Part shown: one piece after another, positions 6,007 through 49,096 of the stretch
Layout of the letters: the number at the start of each line of letters is the position of its first letter
Numbering within the stretch: the first letter of the stretch is position 1
Sequence record: NC_070990.1
Length of the DNA stretch: 64,000 nt
Origin: Escherichia phage MN03
Reading direction: 5' to 3' (one strand)
Notes under the pieces: model-generated
What the model was told of the DNA's origin: nothing
What the model saw: the letters and a program-made list of their open reading frames with translations, nothing else
The model's database searches: none
Made by a program: the position numbers and the translations under genes

Positions 6007-6871
6007 TTGTGAATCCTCGTTGATATGTATTTGGTTTCATGTTTCACAAGATAGCACGTGTTTCTGATTCACACGTAGGGCCATTGCTCAGTTGACCACT
6101 TCACTGACTCGATAGTGTTCCAGCTTTCACCAGTCAATCGCAGAGTCCTTATCTTTAAACATTCTCCACTACTTAGACTGATCAGTCTTCATGGAGCTTA
6201 CTACTATCTAGCTACTTTGCATCACTGCTTCGCTTCGATGAATACAATTTACTACTACTTAATAAGGAAAGCAAGTGCTACGGGTAAACTATTTCTACTA
6301 TCTATATAGGACGGGGAACATACAACCGCAGAGCAGACCACGGGGAAACATAGCAAGATAGTGCGGTAGTAATATACCACTTAAATAATTGTATAACTCA
6401 AACATCAAAGACGTTCGCTACGCTCACAAAGGCACGCTGAAAAAGGAAAGTAATAAAAGAATAATAACATACATCAACCATTATCCACTTAATTAATACA
6501 TATATCATTATTGCACTCATAATAACAACTATTGAAACTATTTACACTCAAACTATGGGGAGCTGTGACCATCATTAATGGCATTATTAGTATGCTAATT
6601 AGTTGGCCTGTACAGTGCTGGCCTTTCTCTCACTCTCTAAAGGGGAACTAAATAAACGGGTAGCTAATGAATAGGATGGTATACACGGGGAAAGAATAAC
6701 GGGGAGTAGGCACGGGGAAAGGTGGAACGTTGAAAGGGAAGGTAAAGGCATTGCCAATAACCCTTTTTTAAATGAGGACTCCCCCTTTTTAGGAAACGCG
6801 CGGCGAGCGGCTAGCCCCATTCGGTCAAATCAGAATTTTAAACTCTTATATATAAGGTTGAAAGAGAACTT

Positions 6872-8178: not shown

Positions 8179-8206
8179 GTTGTTGATAATGTAGAAGGAG
8201 TATAAA

Positions 8207-15693: not shown

Positions 15694-15702
15694 TAATGTA
15701 TA
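15694..15702 (+). promoter_or_regulatory. Phage-type promoter element TAATGTATA, 34 nt upstream of the 15736 start codon
   Basis: One of six near-identical AATGTATA-core motifs, all in intergenic DNA and mostly 34-60 nt before a start codon. Confidence 0.45.
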
Positions 15703-32546: not shown

Positions 32547-32555
32547 TAATGTATA
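32547..32555 (+). promoter_or_regulatory. Phage-type promoter element TAATGTATA, 39 nt upstream of the 32594 start codon
   Basis: Motif tcTATAATGTATATAGG; the ORF-track start at 32549 lies inside this motif. Confidence 0.45.
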
Positions 32556-39880: not shown

Positions 39881-41366
<1,486 letters not shown>

Positions 41367-41367
<1 letters not shown>

Positions 41368-41627
41368 TATTCTATTCCACGCTCTTTCAGAGCTTCTAAC
41401 AATCCATTGTGATTGGCAGCACATTCTGTGTACTGGTCCTGATACCACTCCAACGTAGTGGCTAATGCTTTTCCTTGAGCACTTTCTAAAAGAGGCAGGT
41501 CAACCCTACATTCAGCTTTTAGGTTTGTTGGTAAGGGCATTGATTGCCTGCTGTTGTCGCTCGTTGAACAAGCTGACATACTCATCACTAGCGCAGACAT
41601 TATAAAAAACTGGTTTAGTTTTCTCAT
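41367..41627 (-). CDS. Putative o-spanin (outer-membrane lipoprotein), overlapped out-of-frame with the i-spanin (~86 aa)
   Basis: MRKLNQFFIMSALVMSMSAC then STSDNS: lipoprotein-type signal with Cys, Ser at +2; starts inside the i-spanin gene in another frame. Confidence 0.45.
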
Positions 41628-41862
41628 AATGCATCTCTTTATAAACGGTTTCCGTGTTCTTCTTCCAGTTAGATAAACCGGTAAGAACCCTCTGAGCAAC
41701 TTCATCAGCTGCTCTATTTCTTTCAATCTCTAACTCTTGTTGATGTTTCTCTTTGTCCAGATTACTGCTGTCTGTTTGATATTCGTTAAACTTCATACCA
41801 CCAAAGAATACAAGAGCTGAGAAAACGATAAACCCTAAGTTATCACTTAATGTGTTTTGCAT
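41512..41862 (-). CDS. Putative i-spanin (N-terminal transmembrane helix plus coiled coil) (~116 aa)
   Basis: MQNTLSDNLGFIVFSALVFFGG TM segment then QQELEIERNRAADEVAQRV coiled coil; start moved to ATG 41862 (GGAG SD) because the track start sits in the terminator. Confidence 0.5.
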   Translation of the reverse strand: MQNTLSDNLGFIVFSALVFFGGMKFNEYQTDSSNLDKEKHQQELEIERNRAADEVAQRVLTGLSNWKKNTETVYKEMHYEKTKPVFYNVCASDEYVSLFNERQQQAINALTNKPKS

Positions 41863-41875
41863 GTTGTCTCCAACG

Positions 41876-41899
41876 AAAAAAGCCACCCGGAGGTGGCTA
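41876..41899 (-). terminator. Rho-independent terminator between SSB and spanin genes
   Basis: Minus-strand agccacc-tccg-ggtggct followed by tttttcgtt. Confidence 0.7.
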
Positions 41900-41919
41900 A
41901 GCTATAACAAGGAGAGTTA

Positions 41920-42666
41920 TTAGAATGGGCTATCGTTGTCGTCTTCGTAAGTAGAAGCAGGCTCTTTATCAATCGTAGGGATTGAAGGAGTAGCTTCTTT
42001 CTGCTCTGTTTCAGAAGCACGAGTAATTTCACGACCAGCCAGAGGCATATTCTTAGCGTCATTAGCTTGAGTAAGCAGGTTGCGCTGGAACGGGAACATC
42101 AGTTGATAGGATGCTACGTTCTCATCGGTTTCAGCATACGGTTCGAAGAATACCAGAGGACTACGAGCTTCACCAACTGCTGCACGATATTTGGTTGGGA
42201 TTGGAGAAATGGTCTTGATGGAGTTTTTAACTTCACCAGCTTTGTTAGTGTAAGAGTTAACCAGAATGTTAACAGGCTGACCTAACAGAACATCTTTGAA
42301 CCAAGACAGATCACCTTTCAGTGCTTGAATACTTGGGTCAATCATCTTGCAAAGATCAAGAATACCAGAGTTCTTAGCTCGTGGGTTTACATCATAACTC
42401 TTGAACTGGCAAGCTGGACGTGGTTCTAATGCCTTACCATCGGAATCTTTACCAGTAGCATCAACACCAATCAGCTCGAAAGCTAAATCCATACGGAAAG
42501 CCGGATTCTTAGGAGTTACTGCTTTGGTCTTCGGGTCAATCCAAGGGTCACGATTGTGAACACCCAAACCTACTACACGAACGATACGTGCTTCGTATTC
42601 ACCATCAGGGATTACATCGTAGTTGGATTTACGGGAAGAAGTTGCGATAGTTGGAATCATAGACAT
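41920..42666 (-). CDS. ssb: Single-stranded DNA-binding protein (248 aa)
   Basis: Acidic C-terminal tail ending EDDNDSPF, resembling the SSB C-terminal D-D-D-I-P-F tip; next to replication genes; phage promoter motif upstream. Confidence 0.55.
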   Translation of the reverse strand: MSMIPTIATSSRKSNYDVIPDGEYEARIVRVVGLGVHNRDPWIDPKTKAVTPKNPAFRMDLAFELIGVDATGKDSDGKALEPRPACQFKSYDVNPRAKNSGILDLCKMIDPSIQALKGDLSWFKDVLLGQPVNILVNSYTNKAGEVKNSIKTISPIPTKYRAAVGEARSPLVFFEPYAETDENVASYQLMFPFQRNLLTQANDAKNMPLAGREITRASETEQKEATPSIPTIDKEPASTYEDDNDSPF

Positions 42667-42725
42667 AGTGTAATTTCCTTATTTAATTTGAAAGATTGTT
42701 GCTCTCTTTGAGCGGTTATGTATAG

Positions 42726-42734
42726 TATACATTA
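42726..42734 (-). promoter_or_regulatory. Phage-type promoter element TAATGTATA (minus strand), ~60 nt upstream of the SSB start
   Basis: Plus-strand tatacatta at 42726-42734. Confidence 0.45.
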
Positions 42735-42797
42735 CGCTTATACCGATAAGAGTACTATATAATATAAGAACCTTTGGTAGTAGATATAACACACTAG

Positions 42798-42806
42798 TAA
42801 TGTATA
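42798..42806 (+). promoter_or_regulatory. Phage-type promoter element TAATGTATA (plus strand), pointing into an ORF-free AT-rich region
   Basis: ctagTAATGTATAtattg; divergent from the SSB promoter about 60 bp away. Confidence 0.35.
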
Positions 42807-42902
42807 TATTGTATAGCTGATAAAGTTATTGCAGGCTTGTATATTGGGCAATTCACAGAATCCCTTGCAAGTACCGAAGGGCAGGAGCCACCTGCGAGAT
42901 AA

Positions 42903-42968
42903 AAATAGAGAATTAAGGAATCCTTGATTTAGGTTGTAGGGACTCCTAGGGACTTTGATTCTCTATTT
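42903..42968. repeat. 11-bp inverted repeat (aaatagagaat / attctctattt) flanking a 44-bp spacer with tagggact direct repeats
   Basis: Directly visible: 42903-42913 is the reverse complement of 42958-42968. Confidence 0.6.
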
Positions 42969-43082
42969 AAAAGAATATTAATTACTTATTACCTAAATAA
43001 TTAACTAACTTACTTAAACCAAATTCAAGAATAATAGATAAAAAGATTATTCCTAAGAAAGCTAAAAAGTAAAGGATATAAG

Positions 43083-43247
43083 TTACCATTCAAGTAAACC
43101 TTTAAAGTTAGACTGTTCTAATATCCTCTGATAACGGAGATTAGAATCAGCTTGTTTCTTTAACATCTCATTATATTGATCTCTGATAGAGTCTTTATGT
43201 ACTACAGGTTCTTTAAATAATGAGATCTTGTTCTTTTCTTCTTTCAT
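43083..43247 (-). CDS. Hypothetical small protein (~54 aa)
   Basis: ORF track ORF 43083..43331 trimmed to internal ATG with GGAAGG SD; overlaps the phosphoesterase 3' end. Confidence 0.3.
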   Translation of the reverse strand: MKEEKNKISLFKEPVVHKDSIRDQYNEMLKKQADSNLRYQRILEQSNFKGLLEW

Positions 43248-43716
43248 CAAAAACCTTCCTAATCTCTTGCAGAGAAACAGCTTTATAATCAATTTGCTCC
43301 ATTGATGTACAGAAATATCTCCAATCATCAATTACATGATTATGTGTATGAGCATAAATATTAAACTTTCCTCTCATCTCATCAGTGTGAATAGGAATAT
43401 GAGTTACCCAAAACTCTTTGTACTTATAATCACCAGAGATTCTACGGAAGACTTTCATCATATCAGGGAGAAGTTCTAACCTGTCATGGTTTCCTAAGAC
43501 TAGATGCTTCTCTCCTTTTACTTCAGCGATGATATCAAGGGCATACTTTTCAAACACCCAGTCACCAGTAAAGAAGATTTTATCTCGCTTAGTTACATGA
43601 TCAAATGCAGCTAGAATTGCTTTGTCATGTTCTTCGATGGTTTTAAATTGCTTACGAAAACTACAGATGTTGCGATGACCTAAGTGACCATCCCCTGCAA
43701 AATAAACTTCAGCCAT
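43213..43716 (-). CDS. Calcineurin-like metallophosphoesterase (167 aa)
   Basis: GDGHLGH, GDWV, GNHD and HTH motifs in canonical order. Confidence 0.8.
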   Translation of the reverse strand: MAEVYFAGDGHLGHRNICSFRKQFKTIEEHDKAILAAFDHVTKRDKIFFTGDWVFEKYALDIIAEVKGEKHLVLGNHDRLELLPDMMKVFRRISGDYKYKEFWVTHIPIHTDEMRGKFNIYAHTHNHVIDDWRYFCTSMEQIDYKAVSLQEIRKVFDERRKEQDLII

Positions 43717-43725
43717 AAAGACCTC

Positions 43726-43941
43726 TTAGATAGTGCACCCGTCGCAAGTTAAATCACCTAGAAGGGATAGAGAAAGTAATCTGGATTGCTCATCACTGTA
43801 TAGTTGATCTATCTCTTCTTTAAGTTTTGCCAACTCAATGAAATTGATAAGTTGACCATGTTCAAGACAGTCAGCTTTTAGTATGAACAAAACTTCAGCG
43901 TCTGTTGAATCTTCACTTGAGTATTTATCAATGTATTCCAT
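43726..43941 (-). CDS. Hypothetical protein (71 aa)
   Basis: ORF track. Confidence 0.4.
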   Translation of the reverse strand: MEYIDKYSSEDSTDAEVLFILKADCLEHGQLINFIELAKLKEEIDQLYSDEQSRLLSLSLLGDLTCDGCTI

Positions 43942-43943
43942 TT

Positions 43944-44165
43944 TTATGCCACATCTCCTTGTTTATTGTTAATAACATCCAGTGCTGTATAAGCTTTACC
44001 TGTTCCTAAGTATTCCAGAACAGGAGGACTCTTCTTTTCTTCAGCGACTATATAAGGTGTGATTTTTCCTTTCAGTACAGCCTGAGATGCTTTAGCACTA
44101 TCTTCAGATGTGTGAATAGTAGTAAGCCCTTTCTTCCCAATTCTATAAGTGTGAACCCAAATCAT
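43944..44165 (-). CDS. Hypothetical protein (73 aa)
   Basis: ORF track. Confidence 0.4.
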   Translation of the reverse strand: MIWVHTYRIGKKGLTTIHTSEDSAKASQAVLKGKITPYIVAEEKKSPPVLEYLGTGKAYTALDVINNKQGDVA

Positions 44166-44167
44166 TC

Positions 44168-44329
44168 TTATTCCTCATATTCCCAATTTCTTTCATAATA
44201 TCCAGAGTTATAGTTTAGGGCGCACTTCTCGGCCTCTTCTATATCGTCAGTGTTTAGGATATTTACCCATCCTCCAACTTCATCAAAACCTTCTTCTACT
44301 TCGTTAAACCATACACTATACTTTTTCAT
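44168..44329 (-). CDS. Hypothetical protein (~53 aa)
   Basis: ORF track ORF 44168..44362 trimmed to internal ATG that forms an ATGA overlap with the upstream small ORF. Confidence 0.35.
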   Translation of the reverse strand: MKKYSVWFNEVEEGFDEVGGWVNILNTDDIEEAEKCALNYNSGYYERNWEYEE

Positions 44330-44502
44330 CGAGAAGTTCTTCCCCAATCTTTTACATAGCATCGACCGTTAACCCACTTTGTCTCTGACTTAAATTCCTG
44401 AGACAATCTCACTTCACAGTCTTCTCTACTAGCATCTCCTCCAATATCAATCAGATATAAGAATAGAGCTATACCTAAAGCCCAAAGAATTATCTTCTTC
44501 AT
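44326..44502 (-). CDS. Small membrane/secreted protein (58 aa), not in ORF track
   Basis: MKKIILWALGIALFLYLIDIGG...; ATGA overlap with the upstream gene stop at 44499-44502. Confidence 0.35.
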   Translation of the reverse strand: MKKIILWALGIALFLYLIDIGGDASREDCEVRLSQEFKSETKWVNGRCYVKDWGRTSR

Positions 44503-44909
44503 CGAATCACCAAAGGCTCTTCAGAGTACACAGGAGCGGCTATTTCTACAGGAGGTGCTGCCCTAAGGTCATTAAGTCTTACGCCCTTCAGCATACCGTC
44601 TAGGTGGTCCTTTTTAGGGATTCCAACAGGGAAGTCATCAATCCAGATATCGACGAAGAAACCTAACTGTCGACACACCTCATCCTTCTGTACACCATTA
44701 CAAAAGATGACAGGGATTTGCAGGGTCTCTGCATCATAGAGGATATCCACGTTATCATAACCGTTAGGCTCTGAGAAACGGAAAGTCACGAATCTTACAT
44801 CATGTCCATACCCTTTCATCAAGCCTATCACATCTCTCCACAGTCGTCTGTCTGCTGTGTAAGTGTCATCATAATCTAAACCAATATTCATGTCAAATCC
44901 TTTAGACAA
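44499..44909 (-). CDS. Putative HAD-like hydrolase (136 aa)
   Basis: NIGLDYDDT resembles HAD motif I and WIDDFP a C-terminal Asp motif; weak. Confidence 0.35.
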   Translation of the reverse strand: MSKGFDMNIGLDYDDTYTADRRLWRDVIGLMKGYGHDVRFVTFRFSEPNGYDNVDILYDAETLQIPVIFCNGVQKDEVCRQLGFFVDIWIDDFPVGIPKKDHLDGMLKGVRLNDLRAAPPVEIAAPVYSEEPLVIR

Positions 44910-44911
44910 GA

Positions 44912-44937
44912 AAAGCCGCCCGAAGGCAGCTTCTTAT
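44912..44937 (-). terminator. Hairpin plus T-run on minus strand
   Basis: Minus-strand agctgcc-ttcg-ggcggct followed by tttcttg. Confidence 0.4.
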
Positions 44938-45113
44938 TTAACTGTTCACTTTAGCTTCAAGTGTTTCGTTTTCAATACTCAAGTCAATCACTACACCAGT
45001 AAGCTCAACGACTGCTTGGCGAAGGGCATCTTTACCCATAGAGTGTACTTGAGATAAGAAGAAAGCTTTACCTTCTTCAGTGGATAGGGTTTCTTTTAAT
45101 TCAGAAGCAGTCA
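44938..45113 (-). CDS. Small hypothetical protein (58 aa), not in ORF track
   Basis: ATG at 45113 with AAGGAA SD; MTASELKETLSTEEGKAFFLSQ... Confidence 0.35.
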
Positions 45114-45123
45114 TTGATATTCC

Positions 45124-45291
45124 TTATGTTATGTTATAAATTCGCATGATTGTACCACCATTGGCTTCAATAGCAGCAACCATTTGGTTTCGTTCTTCAT
45201 CCGTGTAAACTAACACACTTCTAAACTCACCTGTTGCATCAGTATAAAGGATGTTATATTTCGGAGGTGGCTTACGGTAAATACCTTCCAT
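45124..45291 (-). CDS. Small hypothetical protein (~55 aa)
   Basis: ORF track ORF trimmed to ATG preceded by GAGGAG. Confidence 0.35.
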   Translation of the reverse strand: MEGIYRKPPPKYNILYTDATGEFRSVLVYTDEERNQMVAAIEANGGTIMRIYNIT

Positions 45292-45474
45292 CACTCTTTC
45301 TCCTCTCGCTCTTTCCACAGTTCGGCTAGCTCTAGATAGAACTCAGCCTCATCAGGACGACCTTGTTCATTACAGATGGCGCTCTGACGATAACACCAAT
45401 CCGATGGCATCTCTTCCACTTCAATCTCCTTGTTATGAACCAATCAATAAGAATAGTTCATTCGTCTTATTTAT

Positions 45475-45669
45475 TCACTCTACCAATGCAGGTACTTCTA
45501 TCCGTTTAACTGTGAATGTCTTGTTTGGAAACTTTCGAACTAGCTCTGCTGCTTTGGTTATTGCTAAGTTCTCTGTCTCAAAGATACACAGTTGACCATT
45601 TAATGCTACGAGAGTGGAGCCACCGCTGAAGACGGCCCAAGATTCATAATAACCACGAACACTCATCAC
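45475..45669 (-). CDS. Hypothetical protein (64 aa)
   Basis: ORF track; 4-nt overlap with upstream gene. Confidence 0.4.
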   Translation of the reverse strand: MMSVRGYYESWAVFSGGSTLVALNGQLCIFETENLAITKAAELVRKFPNKTFTVKRIEVPALVE

Positions 45670-46034
45670 TCAACCTCAATATTATATAGAGTTTTCAGTG
45701 TATCTTTAATCCAAGTAATTCGTTTTTGGTTCTTGTGGTGTGATCTGTTATCTCTATCTCTGAAATATTGGTCACAGCCAAAAGGGTATGTATGGTCCGA
45801 GAATTTATCTTGGTTAAACATATTCTTCATGTCATCCACGTCTAGATGTTTTGTGAAATAATAATACTTCTTATAACAGCGGAAGTTGAAGCATAGTCCG
45901 TGATCTTCATTAAACCAAGGAGGACACTCTTCTGTTTGAGTTATATGATAATACTGGAGGAGGAAATCTTCCATCCCTCTCTCCTTGAATAAACACCTAA
46001 GTGTTCTATAGATTATATTAGTTTCTTTCATCAC
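45666..46034 (-). CDS. Hypothetical Cys-rich protein (122 aa)
   Basis: ORF track. Confidence 0.45.
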   Translation of the reverse strand: MMKETNIIYRTLRCLFKERGMEDFLLQYYHITQTEECPPWFNEDHGLCFNFRCYKKYYYFTKHLDVDDMKNMFNQDKFSDHTYPFGCDQYFRDRDNRSHHKNQKRITWIKDTLKTLYNIEVE

Positions 46035-48772: not shown

Positions 48773-49027
48773 TTAAACTCCTTTAGGGAATGGGATGAGA
48801 TTTTCTACTGCAACACGGAAAGATTTTTCTACGTTCTTATTCTTATAAGAGATAAATTTTCCATCAGCTCCTCGAAGGAGTACGTTAGTGCGAGCTGTAT
48901 TTGGGTTTTGTTGAATCATAGAACGAATGATGTTCTCTGAACCTCTATGCTTATTGGTGAATTTCCAACTGATAGTTTTACCGGTACGAGTTACATCAAT
49001 GATGTTTACGATTTTTACAATAGACAT
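48773..49027 (-). CDS. Hypothetical protein (84 aa), paralogue of 48487..48771
   Basis: See paralogue; tandem arrangement. Confidence 0.45.
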   Translation of the reverse strand: MSIVKIVNIIDVTRTGKTISWKFTNKHRGSENIIRSMIQQNPNTARTNVLLRGADGKFISYKNKNVEKSFRVAVENLIPFPKGV

Positions 49028-49096
49028 ATTTATTACCTAAGAAGTTTAATTTGGTTTATATAAAAGAAAAGGCCACCTGATTAGGCAGCCTTTGTT

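Follow-up and report, generated by a model that had tools for sequence, protein, structure and literature searches.

The window analysed here is a stretch of 64,000 nucleotides (nt) from Escherichia phage MN03 (sequence record NC_070990.1), a phiEco32-like coliphage (Kuravirus). Our subject is a plus-strand unit at 42813-42968, which is placed centrally in the block of replication genes, where every gene nearby is on the minus strand. To its left are two divergent promoters and a gene whose product has been labelled, on weak grounds, a single-stranded DNA-binding protein (the SSB-like gene, 41920-42666, minus strand). To its right is an AT-rich tract (42969-43081), most of which is filled by a homolog of phiEco32 gene 41 (42982-43089, minus strand). 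An earlier note on this DNA had taken 42667-43082 to be a 416-bp region free of open reading frames (ORFs); with gene 41 in place, the truly non-coding part is reduced to 42667-42981. We consider it probable that a real promoter of the phage sigma factor gp36 reads the conserved non-coding unit on the plus strand.

Two divergent gp36 promoters, one known and one predicted

The sigma factor gp36 is encoded by phiEco32, and six promoters dependent on it have been published, upstream of genes 6, 13, and 26 (late) and of genes 40, 58, and 68 (middle) (PMC8948821, PMC4331800). They have a single common element, tAATGTAtA, with transcription starting 6-8 nt downstream (PMC8948821, PMC4331800). The promoter set has been treated as consisting of these six, all serving genes. 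In phage SU10, Table S2 gives the identical six promoter sites, P40 being the promoter between CDS37 and CDS38. The six known sites are found in the window at 8187(+), 15694(+), 32547(+), 42726(-), 49752(-), and 54119(-). A cryo-EM study of 2025 placed AATGTA at -14 to -9 and found that the C-terminal domain of gp36 reads the -35 region of P68; two bases there, -37G and -34A, are indispensable, their mutation abolishing gp36 transcription (PMC12276001).

The exact sequence TAATGTATA occurs five times in the window against an expectation of 0.68, and five copies were reached in none of 100 shuffles. Two of the copies are at our locus, one on each strand, back to back and without overlap, with 63 nt between them; the earlier description of divergent phage promoter motifs about 60 bp apart is thus accurate. 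Both motifs are exact in all 20 of the relatives from GenBank and IMG/VR that were first compared. The minus-strand motif (42726-42734) is the -10-like element of the known P40, a published gp36-dependent middle promoter, driving the SSB-like gene from a predicted start at 42719. In relatives L082-L084 the P40 element reads TAATGTATT. Directly after it in the window comes an inverted near-copy (GTTATGTATA / TATACATTAC, 42715-42735), and the palindrome so formed spans the predicted P40 start. The near-copy is not kept in the SU7/MLP3 group.

The plus-strand motif (42798-42806, promoter positions -15 to -7) is preceded by a -35 region, TTGGTAGTAGATAT (42774-42787, positions -39 to -26), a 14-mer identical to that of the P68-like promoter at 54119(-). 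The window has no third exact copy of the 14-mer; the two stand at equal distance to their -10 elements, and both promoters have G at -37 and A at -34. In the -10 comparison, the plus-strand promoter has a perfect TAATGTATA and P68 has AAATGTATA. An alignment of 18 versions shows the -35 block and TAATGTATATA to be invariant and the 10 nt between them to be freely variable, which is the footprint expected of a two-part promoter. In L080 and L082-L084, whose SSB-like proteins are only 71-81% identical, TGGTAGT and AATG are kept and the spacer is 1 nt shorter. In myPSH1131, L002, and L032-L036 (L018 is also listed), an insert of about 190 nt with a small ORF lies between the two promoters. The plus-strand promoter of these relatives has TGGTAGTA, with unchanged spacing, and is still attached to the element on its right. 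The plus-strand promoter is therefore linked to the right-hand element and not to P40. The insert of L036 holds a minus-strand ORF of about 50 amino acids, whose start codon overlaps the -35 block of the plus-strand promoter.

The plus-strand promoter is absent from both promoter lists, the six of phiEco32 and Table S2 of SU10. By its sequence features it is a probable seventh gp36 promoter, previously unlisted, "unreported" resting here on later papers that summarise the primary promoter work. Since AATGTA occupies -14 to -9 and mapped starts lie 6-8 nt past the element, the predicted start of transcription is at 42813. That this promoter points away from every gene, as the earlier note had it, agrees with the minus-strand position of all the nearby genes, and both the -35/-10 match and the conservation speak for a promoter. 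Two sub-classes of -35 region seem to exist among the gp36 promoters: the late-type promoters at 15694-15702(+) and 32547-32555(+) have TAAGACCTA in common at -38 to -30, and those at 42798-42806(+) and 54119-54127(-) have TTGGTAGTAGATAT in common at -39 to -26.

A conserved unit of predicted hairpins

From the predicted start, the unit opens with a 5'-terminal hairpin, H1 (42813-42829), identified from folds and covariation. A variable middle domain with a replaceable hairpin follows (42833-42871; alignments and folds). Next are a near-invariant block delimited by alignments (42872-42902), with a hairpin H2 (42881-42885 / 42891-42895) and the A-tract GATAAAAAT, and a long hairpin, H3 (42903-42968), which by its folds comprises 66 nt, with a lower stem of 12-16 bp and an upper part holding both TAGGGACT boxes. 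The inverted repeat of 11 bp noted earlier is present within H3 and can be extended to 14 nt (42903-42916 / 42955-42968, 93% complementary); as RNA it forms 16 pairs, G-U pairs included. The tandem boxes are likewise where they had been described (42937-42944 and 42947-42954), and the 64 kb contain no further copy. A transcript ending at H3 is predicted to be about 155-160 nt long and not about 250 nt, the size proposed before.

A 1-kb query around the locus matches 97 phage records at 80-99% identity, all from Escherichia or Shigella phages of the phiEco32 group (Kuravirus, Suseptimavirus; subfamily Gordonclarkvirinae). The core of the unit (42872-42968) is found as a single copy in each of the 97, at 92% identity or more, and at 99% or more in 70 of them. 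Identity is 93-98% in the core against 70-88% in the adjacent gene, and the core is almost unchanged in the relatives with 71-81% identity in the SSB-like protein. H3 is nearly invariant across 25 distinct versions. The conservation ends sharply at the end of H3, to the right of which there are at least six unrelated arrangements: gene 41, a longer phosphoesterase gene end (Paul/ECBP2 group), and inserts in L002, L080, L082/L083, and L084.

Outside the group, a BLAST search of 5,426 E. coli genomes did not find the core, and a scan of GTDB with the H3 pattern gave two cyanobacterial matches, about the number expected by chance. The element is absent in the 7-11-like, GAP52, and Privateer phages (SSB-like identity about 42%), where the homologous gene is preceded by an intergenic space of only 0-100 nt. 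A metagenome scan by the SSB-like protein gave few new variants, look-ups in Logan/ENA being more productive. A sister clade (L007, L008, L009, L086, L088, L089, and L091; SSB-like identity 64-70%) also lacks the element and has at the equivalent position a different, near-invariant hairpin of about 55 nt, GGAAGCATCTAGCAAAGCTAGCATATCAAAGCTAAGCTAAGCTATATGCTTTATCC. A conserved hairpin upstream of the SSB-like gene may thus be a general feature of the group.

H1 is known in nine sequence versions, every one of which folds from +1. Its pairs change between CG, UA, and AU, between UA and GC, and between GC and GU; the observed covariation score was reached in none of 500 shuffles, and controls slid along the sequence drop to about 40% pairing. 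The middle domain exists in at least four non-homologous versions, with a hairpin in each, and between L080 and L082/L083 two compensatory double changes fall in one 5-bp helix. In H2, GCAGG/CCUGC is replaced by GCUGG/CCAGC in L080, a compensatory change of A-U to U-A. In H3, the lengths of a UCC(C)U tract and of the AGG(G)A box co-vary (CC/GG, CC/GGG, CCC/GGG), and the 12-16-bp lower stem has a single change, A to G, which yields a G-U pair. The fold energies on the plus versus the minus strand are -4.8 versus 0.0 kcal/mol for H1 and -23.5 versus -18.2 kcal/mol for H3. The folds are made specific to the plus strand by several conserved G-U pairs that have no counterpart on the minus strand. 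Across the element the local GC skew has a positive sign, opposite to that of the flanking minus-strand genes.

The upstream UCCU tract can pair with one or the other of the TAGGGACT boxes, so that two alternative helices are suggested. Both boxes lose one G jointly (AGGACT twice) in the Paul/ECBP2/L080/L084 versions, and no intermediate was seen. Hairpins at the 5' end were also considered as a general trait of gp36 transcripts, an idea that was not supported. The plus-strand ORFs of the unit start with TTG only and encode 21-32 amino acids; as candidate genes they were rejected, since a 1-nt indel and non-homologous replacement disrupt them in relatives. A search for tRNA and tmRNA genes was negative.

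A proposed small or antisense RNA gene

We give an even chance to the reading that the unit encodes a new small or antisense RNA of the phage, read from a phage-sigma promoter. Host RNA polymerase with gp36 would start at about 42813 and read rightward, against all the neighbouring genes, to produce a non-coding RNA of about 155-160 nt composed of H1, the replaceable middle hairpin, the invariant block with H2, and the invariant H3. On the minus strand, H3 lies directly past the last gene of the converging operon and would probably end transcripts from both sides, flanked as it is by an A-tract and, at its opposite end, by a U-rich run. We infer that it is a non-canonical two-way terminator or a processing hairpin. 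The functional product would most likely be the RNA itself, a small or antisense RNA of the middle phase. Its invariant 3' domain would be exactly complementary to the 3' end, or to the read-through, of the mRNA of the converging operon. Because of this exact complementarity, a cis-antisense role like that of lambda OOP RNA would be the simplest mechanism; any assignment of target and effect is speculative. The promoter identity, the conservation, the lack of coding potential, and the compensatory changes in the hairpins are all read from the sequence with the help of published biochemistry. Compensatory changes occur in H1, in the middle hairpin, and in H2; along with the plus-specific G-U pairs, they point to selection on a folded plus-strand molecule and so favour a functional RNA.

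Several results weigh against this interpretation. Transcript data for this phage or its relatives were not found in the literature searched. In L036, a metagenomic contig of 68 kb (ERZ1034915), the plus-strand -10 element is altered to TAATATATA, the sole such copy seen; the change, G-11A, is at a base contacted by gp36 and could be a natural variant or an assembly error. The stability of H1 is not unusual compared with shuffled sequence. Because H3 and the greater part of the core do not vary, they carry no information on RNA pairing, and an enrichment of the variable sites of the core at unpaired positions was not significant (p = 0.05). The invariance of stems and loops alike exceeds what secondary structure needs and would fit a DNA site bound by protein. 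A search of 40000-46000 against Rfam 15 gave no match at E <= 1. The 3' end of the RNA, which we infer to be at H3, is uncertain: the plus-strand 3' flank, UAUUU, has only 3-4 U before an A-run, and a standard terminator scan does not call H3, whose stem base is A/U-rich and whose loop is large. On the minus strand the 3' flank is terminator-like, the invariant UAUUUUUAUC. The searches for an antisense target gave a longest complementarity of 11-12 nt in the rest of the window, which is the chance level, and no match by BLAST in the 5,426 E. coli genomes.

A possible transcription-activated replication origin

The very AT-rich tract to the right of H3, the remaining feature of the earlier description, is real (GC content 0.17-0.23; 18-22% over 42970-43089). 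A GC content of 0.20 or less over 60 nt is found at only three places in the 64 kb, of which this tract is the longest. The other two, 6446-6548 and 49002-49072, are both intergenic, and the latter adjoins a terminator-like hairpin of the minus strand. The first 60 nt past H3 have a GC content of 0.15-0.28 in all six of the non-homologous flank types, a range of which the upper limit is attained or undercut by just 1% of the 60-nt windows of this genome. Low GC in six unrelated flanks means that AT-richness is conserved here as a property and not as a sequence, whatever is encoded. This is the strongest point for an origin of replication.

We regard as possible, on the unlikely side, a transcription-activated origin at which plus-strand transcription opens the DNA, primes synthesis, or does both. 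The invariant G-rich block and the hairpin would mark the place of replisome loading, for example on the displaced plus strand, and the AT-rich DNA would be the unwinding element. An equally doubtful form of the idea makes the unit the primary replication origin of phiEco32-like phages, with the hairpin or the displaced plus strand recruiting a T7-like replisome. Host polymerase with gp36 would there transcribe a structured leader, and the DNA of lowest GC content in the genome would melt beside it. Apart from the AT-rich tract, which directly follows the unit, the origin is favoured by a promoter that faces away from the genes and belongs to the middle (P68) sub-class, and by the central position among the replication genes. 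The element is moreover single-copy in all 97 records, including the shortest (58-70 kb), and its invariant stems and loops suit a cis site recognised by protein. A dedicated initiator protein is not annotated, which suggests T7-style initiation.

Other properties of the locus fit an origin less well. The cumulative GC skew, although weak as evidence in phages, has its only turning points near 5 kb and near 38 kb, at the switches in the direction of transcription, and does not turn at 42.8 kb. Apart from the two 8-nt boxes, iterons are absent. The strongly conserved part is the structured segment and not the AT-rich tract, and in two thirds of the relatives that tract is mostly a conserved protein-coding gene. 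Selection for folded 5' and middle hairpins points to a free, folded RNA there and not to an R-loop. In 7-11, GAP52, and Privateer there is no space for such an element upstream of the homologous gene. Of the two proposals in the earlier note, origin or structured RNA, the RNA has the more direct support from the compensatory changes and the G-U pairs confined to the plus strand, and the origin is the less probable alternative.

Two improbable readings: transcription architecture only and a toxin-antitoxin pair

It is improbable, in our estimate, that the locus is transcription architecture only, with an RNA that has no function. H3 would then be a terminator or processing hairpin dividing the upstream operon from the P40 unit, and the effect of the plus-strand promoter would be on the DNA, perhaps by divergent supercoiling that boosts P40 or by collision with read-through polymerases. 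The place of H3 agrees with this: on the minus strand it begins 14 nt past the stop codon of gene 41 and, in the Paul group, is separated from the phosphoesterase gene end by about 30 nt, and it is followed by the invariant UAUUUUUAUC. The back-to-back promoters without overlap, and the different invariant hairpin of the sister clade at the equivalent position, also agree. However, this explanation leaves the invariant block at 42872-42902, which lies beyond a minus-strand terminator, without a role. It does not account for the compensatory changes of two hairpins, H1 and the middle one, that would be present in the plus-strand transcript only, nor for the linkage of the plus-strand promoter to the element despite about 190 nt between it and P40. 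Terminators, furthermore, normally drift, whereas H3 is invariant, and the terminator scan does not call it.

It is very improbable that the locus is a type I toxin-antitoxin-like pair, in which the plus-strand RNA would be the antisense regulator of gene 41 with a common bidirectional terminator, as in par/Fst and TxpA/RatA: gene 41 does encode a conserved 35-residue, single-helix hydrophobic peptide and converges on the plus-strand unit with H3 common to both, but it is inside an operon without a promoter of its own, L080 and L082-L084 have other right flanks, and the pairing fails because 8 of 20 element-bearing relatives lack gene 41 and keep promoter and element unchanged.

Neighbouring genes

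The eight relatives without gene 41 are Paul, XT32, Bas86, NC-B, E20-1, TH43, Bas88, and ECBP2. The peptide of the window, MVTYILYFLAFLGIIFLSIILEFGLSKLVNYLGNK, is assigned to PHROG 24970 (E = 3e-24) and corresponds to phi32_41 of phiEco32. Where the gene is present, frame and peptide are kept, with conservative substitutions. Its start overlaps the stop codon of the preceding ORF (ATGGTAA).

The SSB-like gene, which is served by P40, is the homolog of phi32_40 and SU10_37 (homolog table, PMC8948821 supplement). It falls in PHROG 6599, a family of unknown function, and an annotation as single-stranded DNA-binding is found in some GenBank records only. Searches with its protein sequence in Pfam and the PDB gave no match. 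The tail of the protein, ...EDDNDSPF, resembles the acidic C-terminus of SSB proteins. The label "SSB gene", which the earlier note gave to this neighbour, we treat as weak. A canonical terminator (AGCCACCTCCGGGTGGCT plus a T run) follows the gene at 41881-41898 on the minus strand. An invariant block at 42690-42715 lies in its predicted 5' untranslated region and includes a GCUC-AAAGA-GAGC hairpin; by analogy with T4 gene 32, it could act as a translational operator.

Significance

As phiEco32 is the model for phage-encoded sigma factors, a seventh promoter would alter its transcription map. This promoter is the best match to the consensus, it opposes the genes, and the element to which it is linked is the most conserved non-coding DNA in the stretches compared. 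If it is real, part of the middle-phase transcription is spent on something other than protein. An RNA product would found a new family of phage regulatory RNAs present in at least 97 sequenced coliphages, several of them candidates for therapy. An origin would be the first for this phage subfamily, and it would be licensed by the phage sigma factor and not by a phage RNA polymerase or an initiator protein. In the engineering of these phages, the element would serve as a landmark to be kept or safely avoided.

Comparison with known systems

The closest likeness of the plus-strand promoter is to P68 and P40. As in both, AATGTA would be at -14 to -9, and the promoter is intergenic and conserved across the genus. 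It has in common with P68 the identical 14-nt -35 block at equal spacing, including -37G and -34A. Unlike P68 and P40, it points away from all genes, no ORF follows it, and its start is a predicted one.

OOP RNA of lambda and similar cis-antisense small RNAs of phages are short, have their own promoter, oppose an operon beside replication genes, terminate in a hairpin, and show complementarity to the converging message at its 3' end. The RNA predicted here would have the same layout. It would differ in being read from a phage-sigma promoter, in being about twice as long, and in being mostly intergenic. Its partner gene, moreover, varies among relatives, and it has no sequence or Rfam similarity to OOP.

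The primary origin of T7 consists of the promoters phi1.1A and phi1.1B and an AT-rich region, and oriF and oriG of T4 consist of a middle promoter and an unwinding element. Our locus resembles these in having a phage-specific promoter of the middle type, followed by very AT-rich DNA, inside a replication block. Unlike them, it has about 155 nt of conserved, structured, G-rich sequence between promoter and AT-rich tract, the tract is largely coding, and the promoter opposes the local genes. Were the unit an origin, it might also be likened to the RNA II system of ColE1.

Bidirectional terminators shared by convergent RNAs are known, for example that of RNA I and RNA II of the par locus of pAD1. 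H3 differs from these in its length of 66 nt, its branching, its A/U-rich base, its invariance, and its failure in the canonical scan, but it is like them in the arrangement of A-tract, hairpin, and U-rich run between two converging units.

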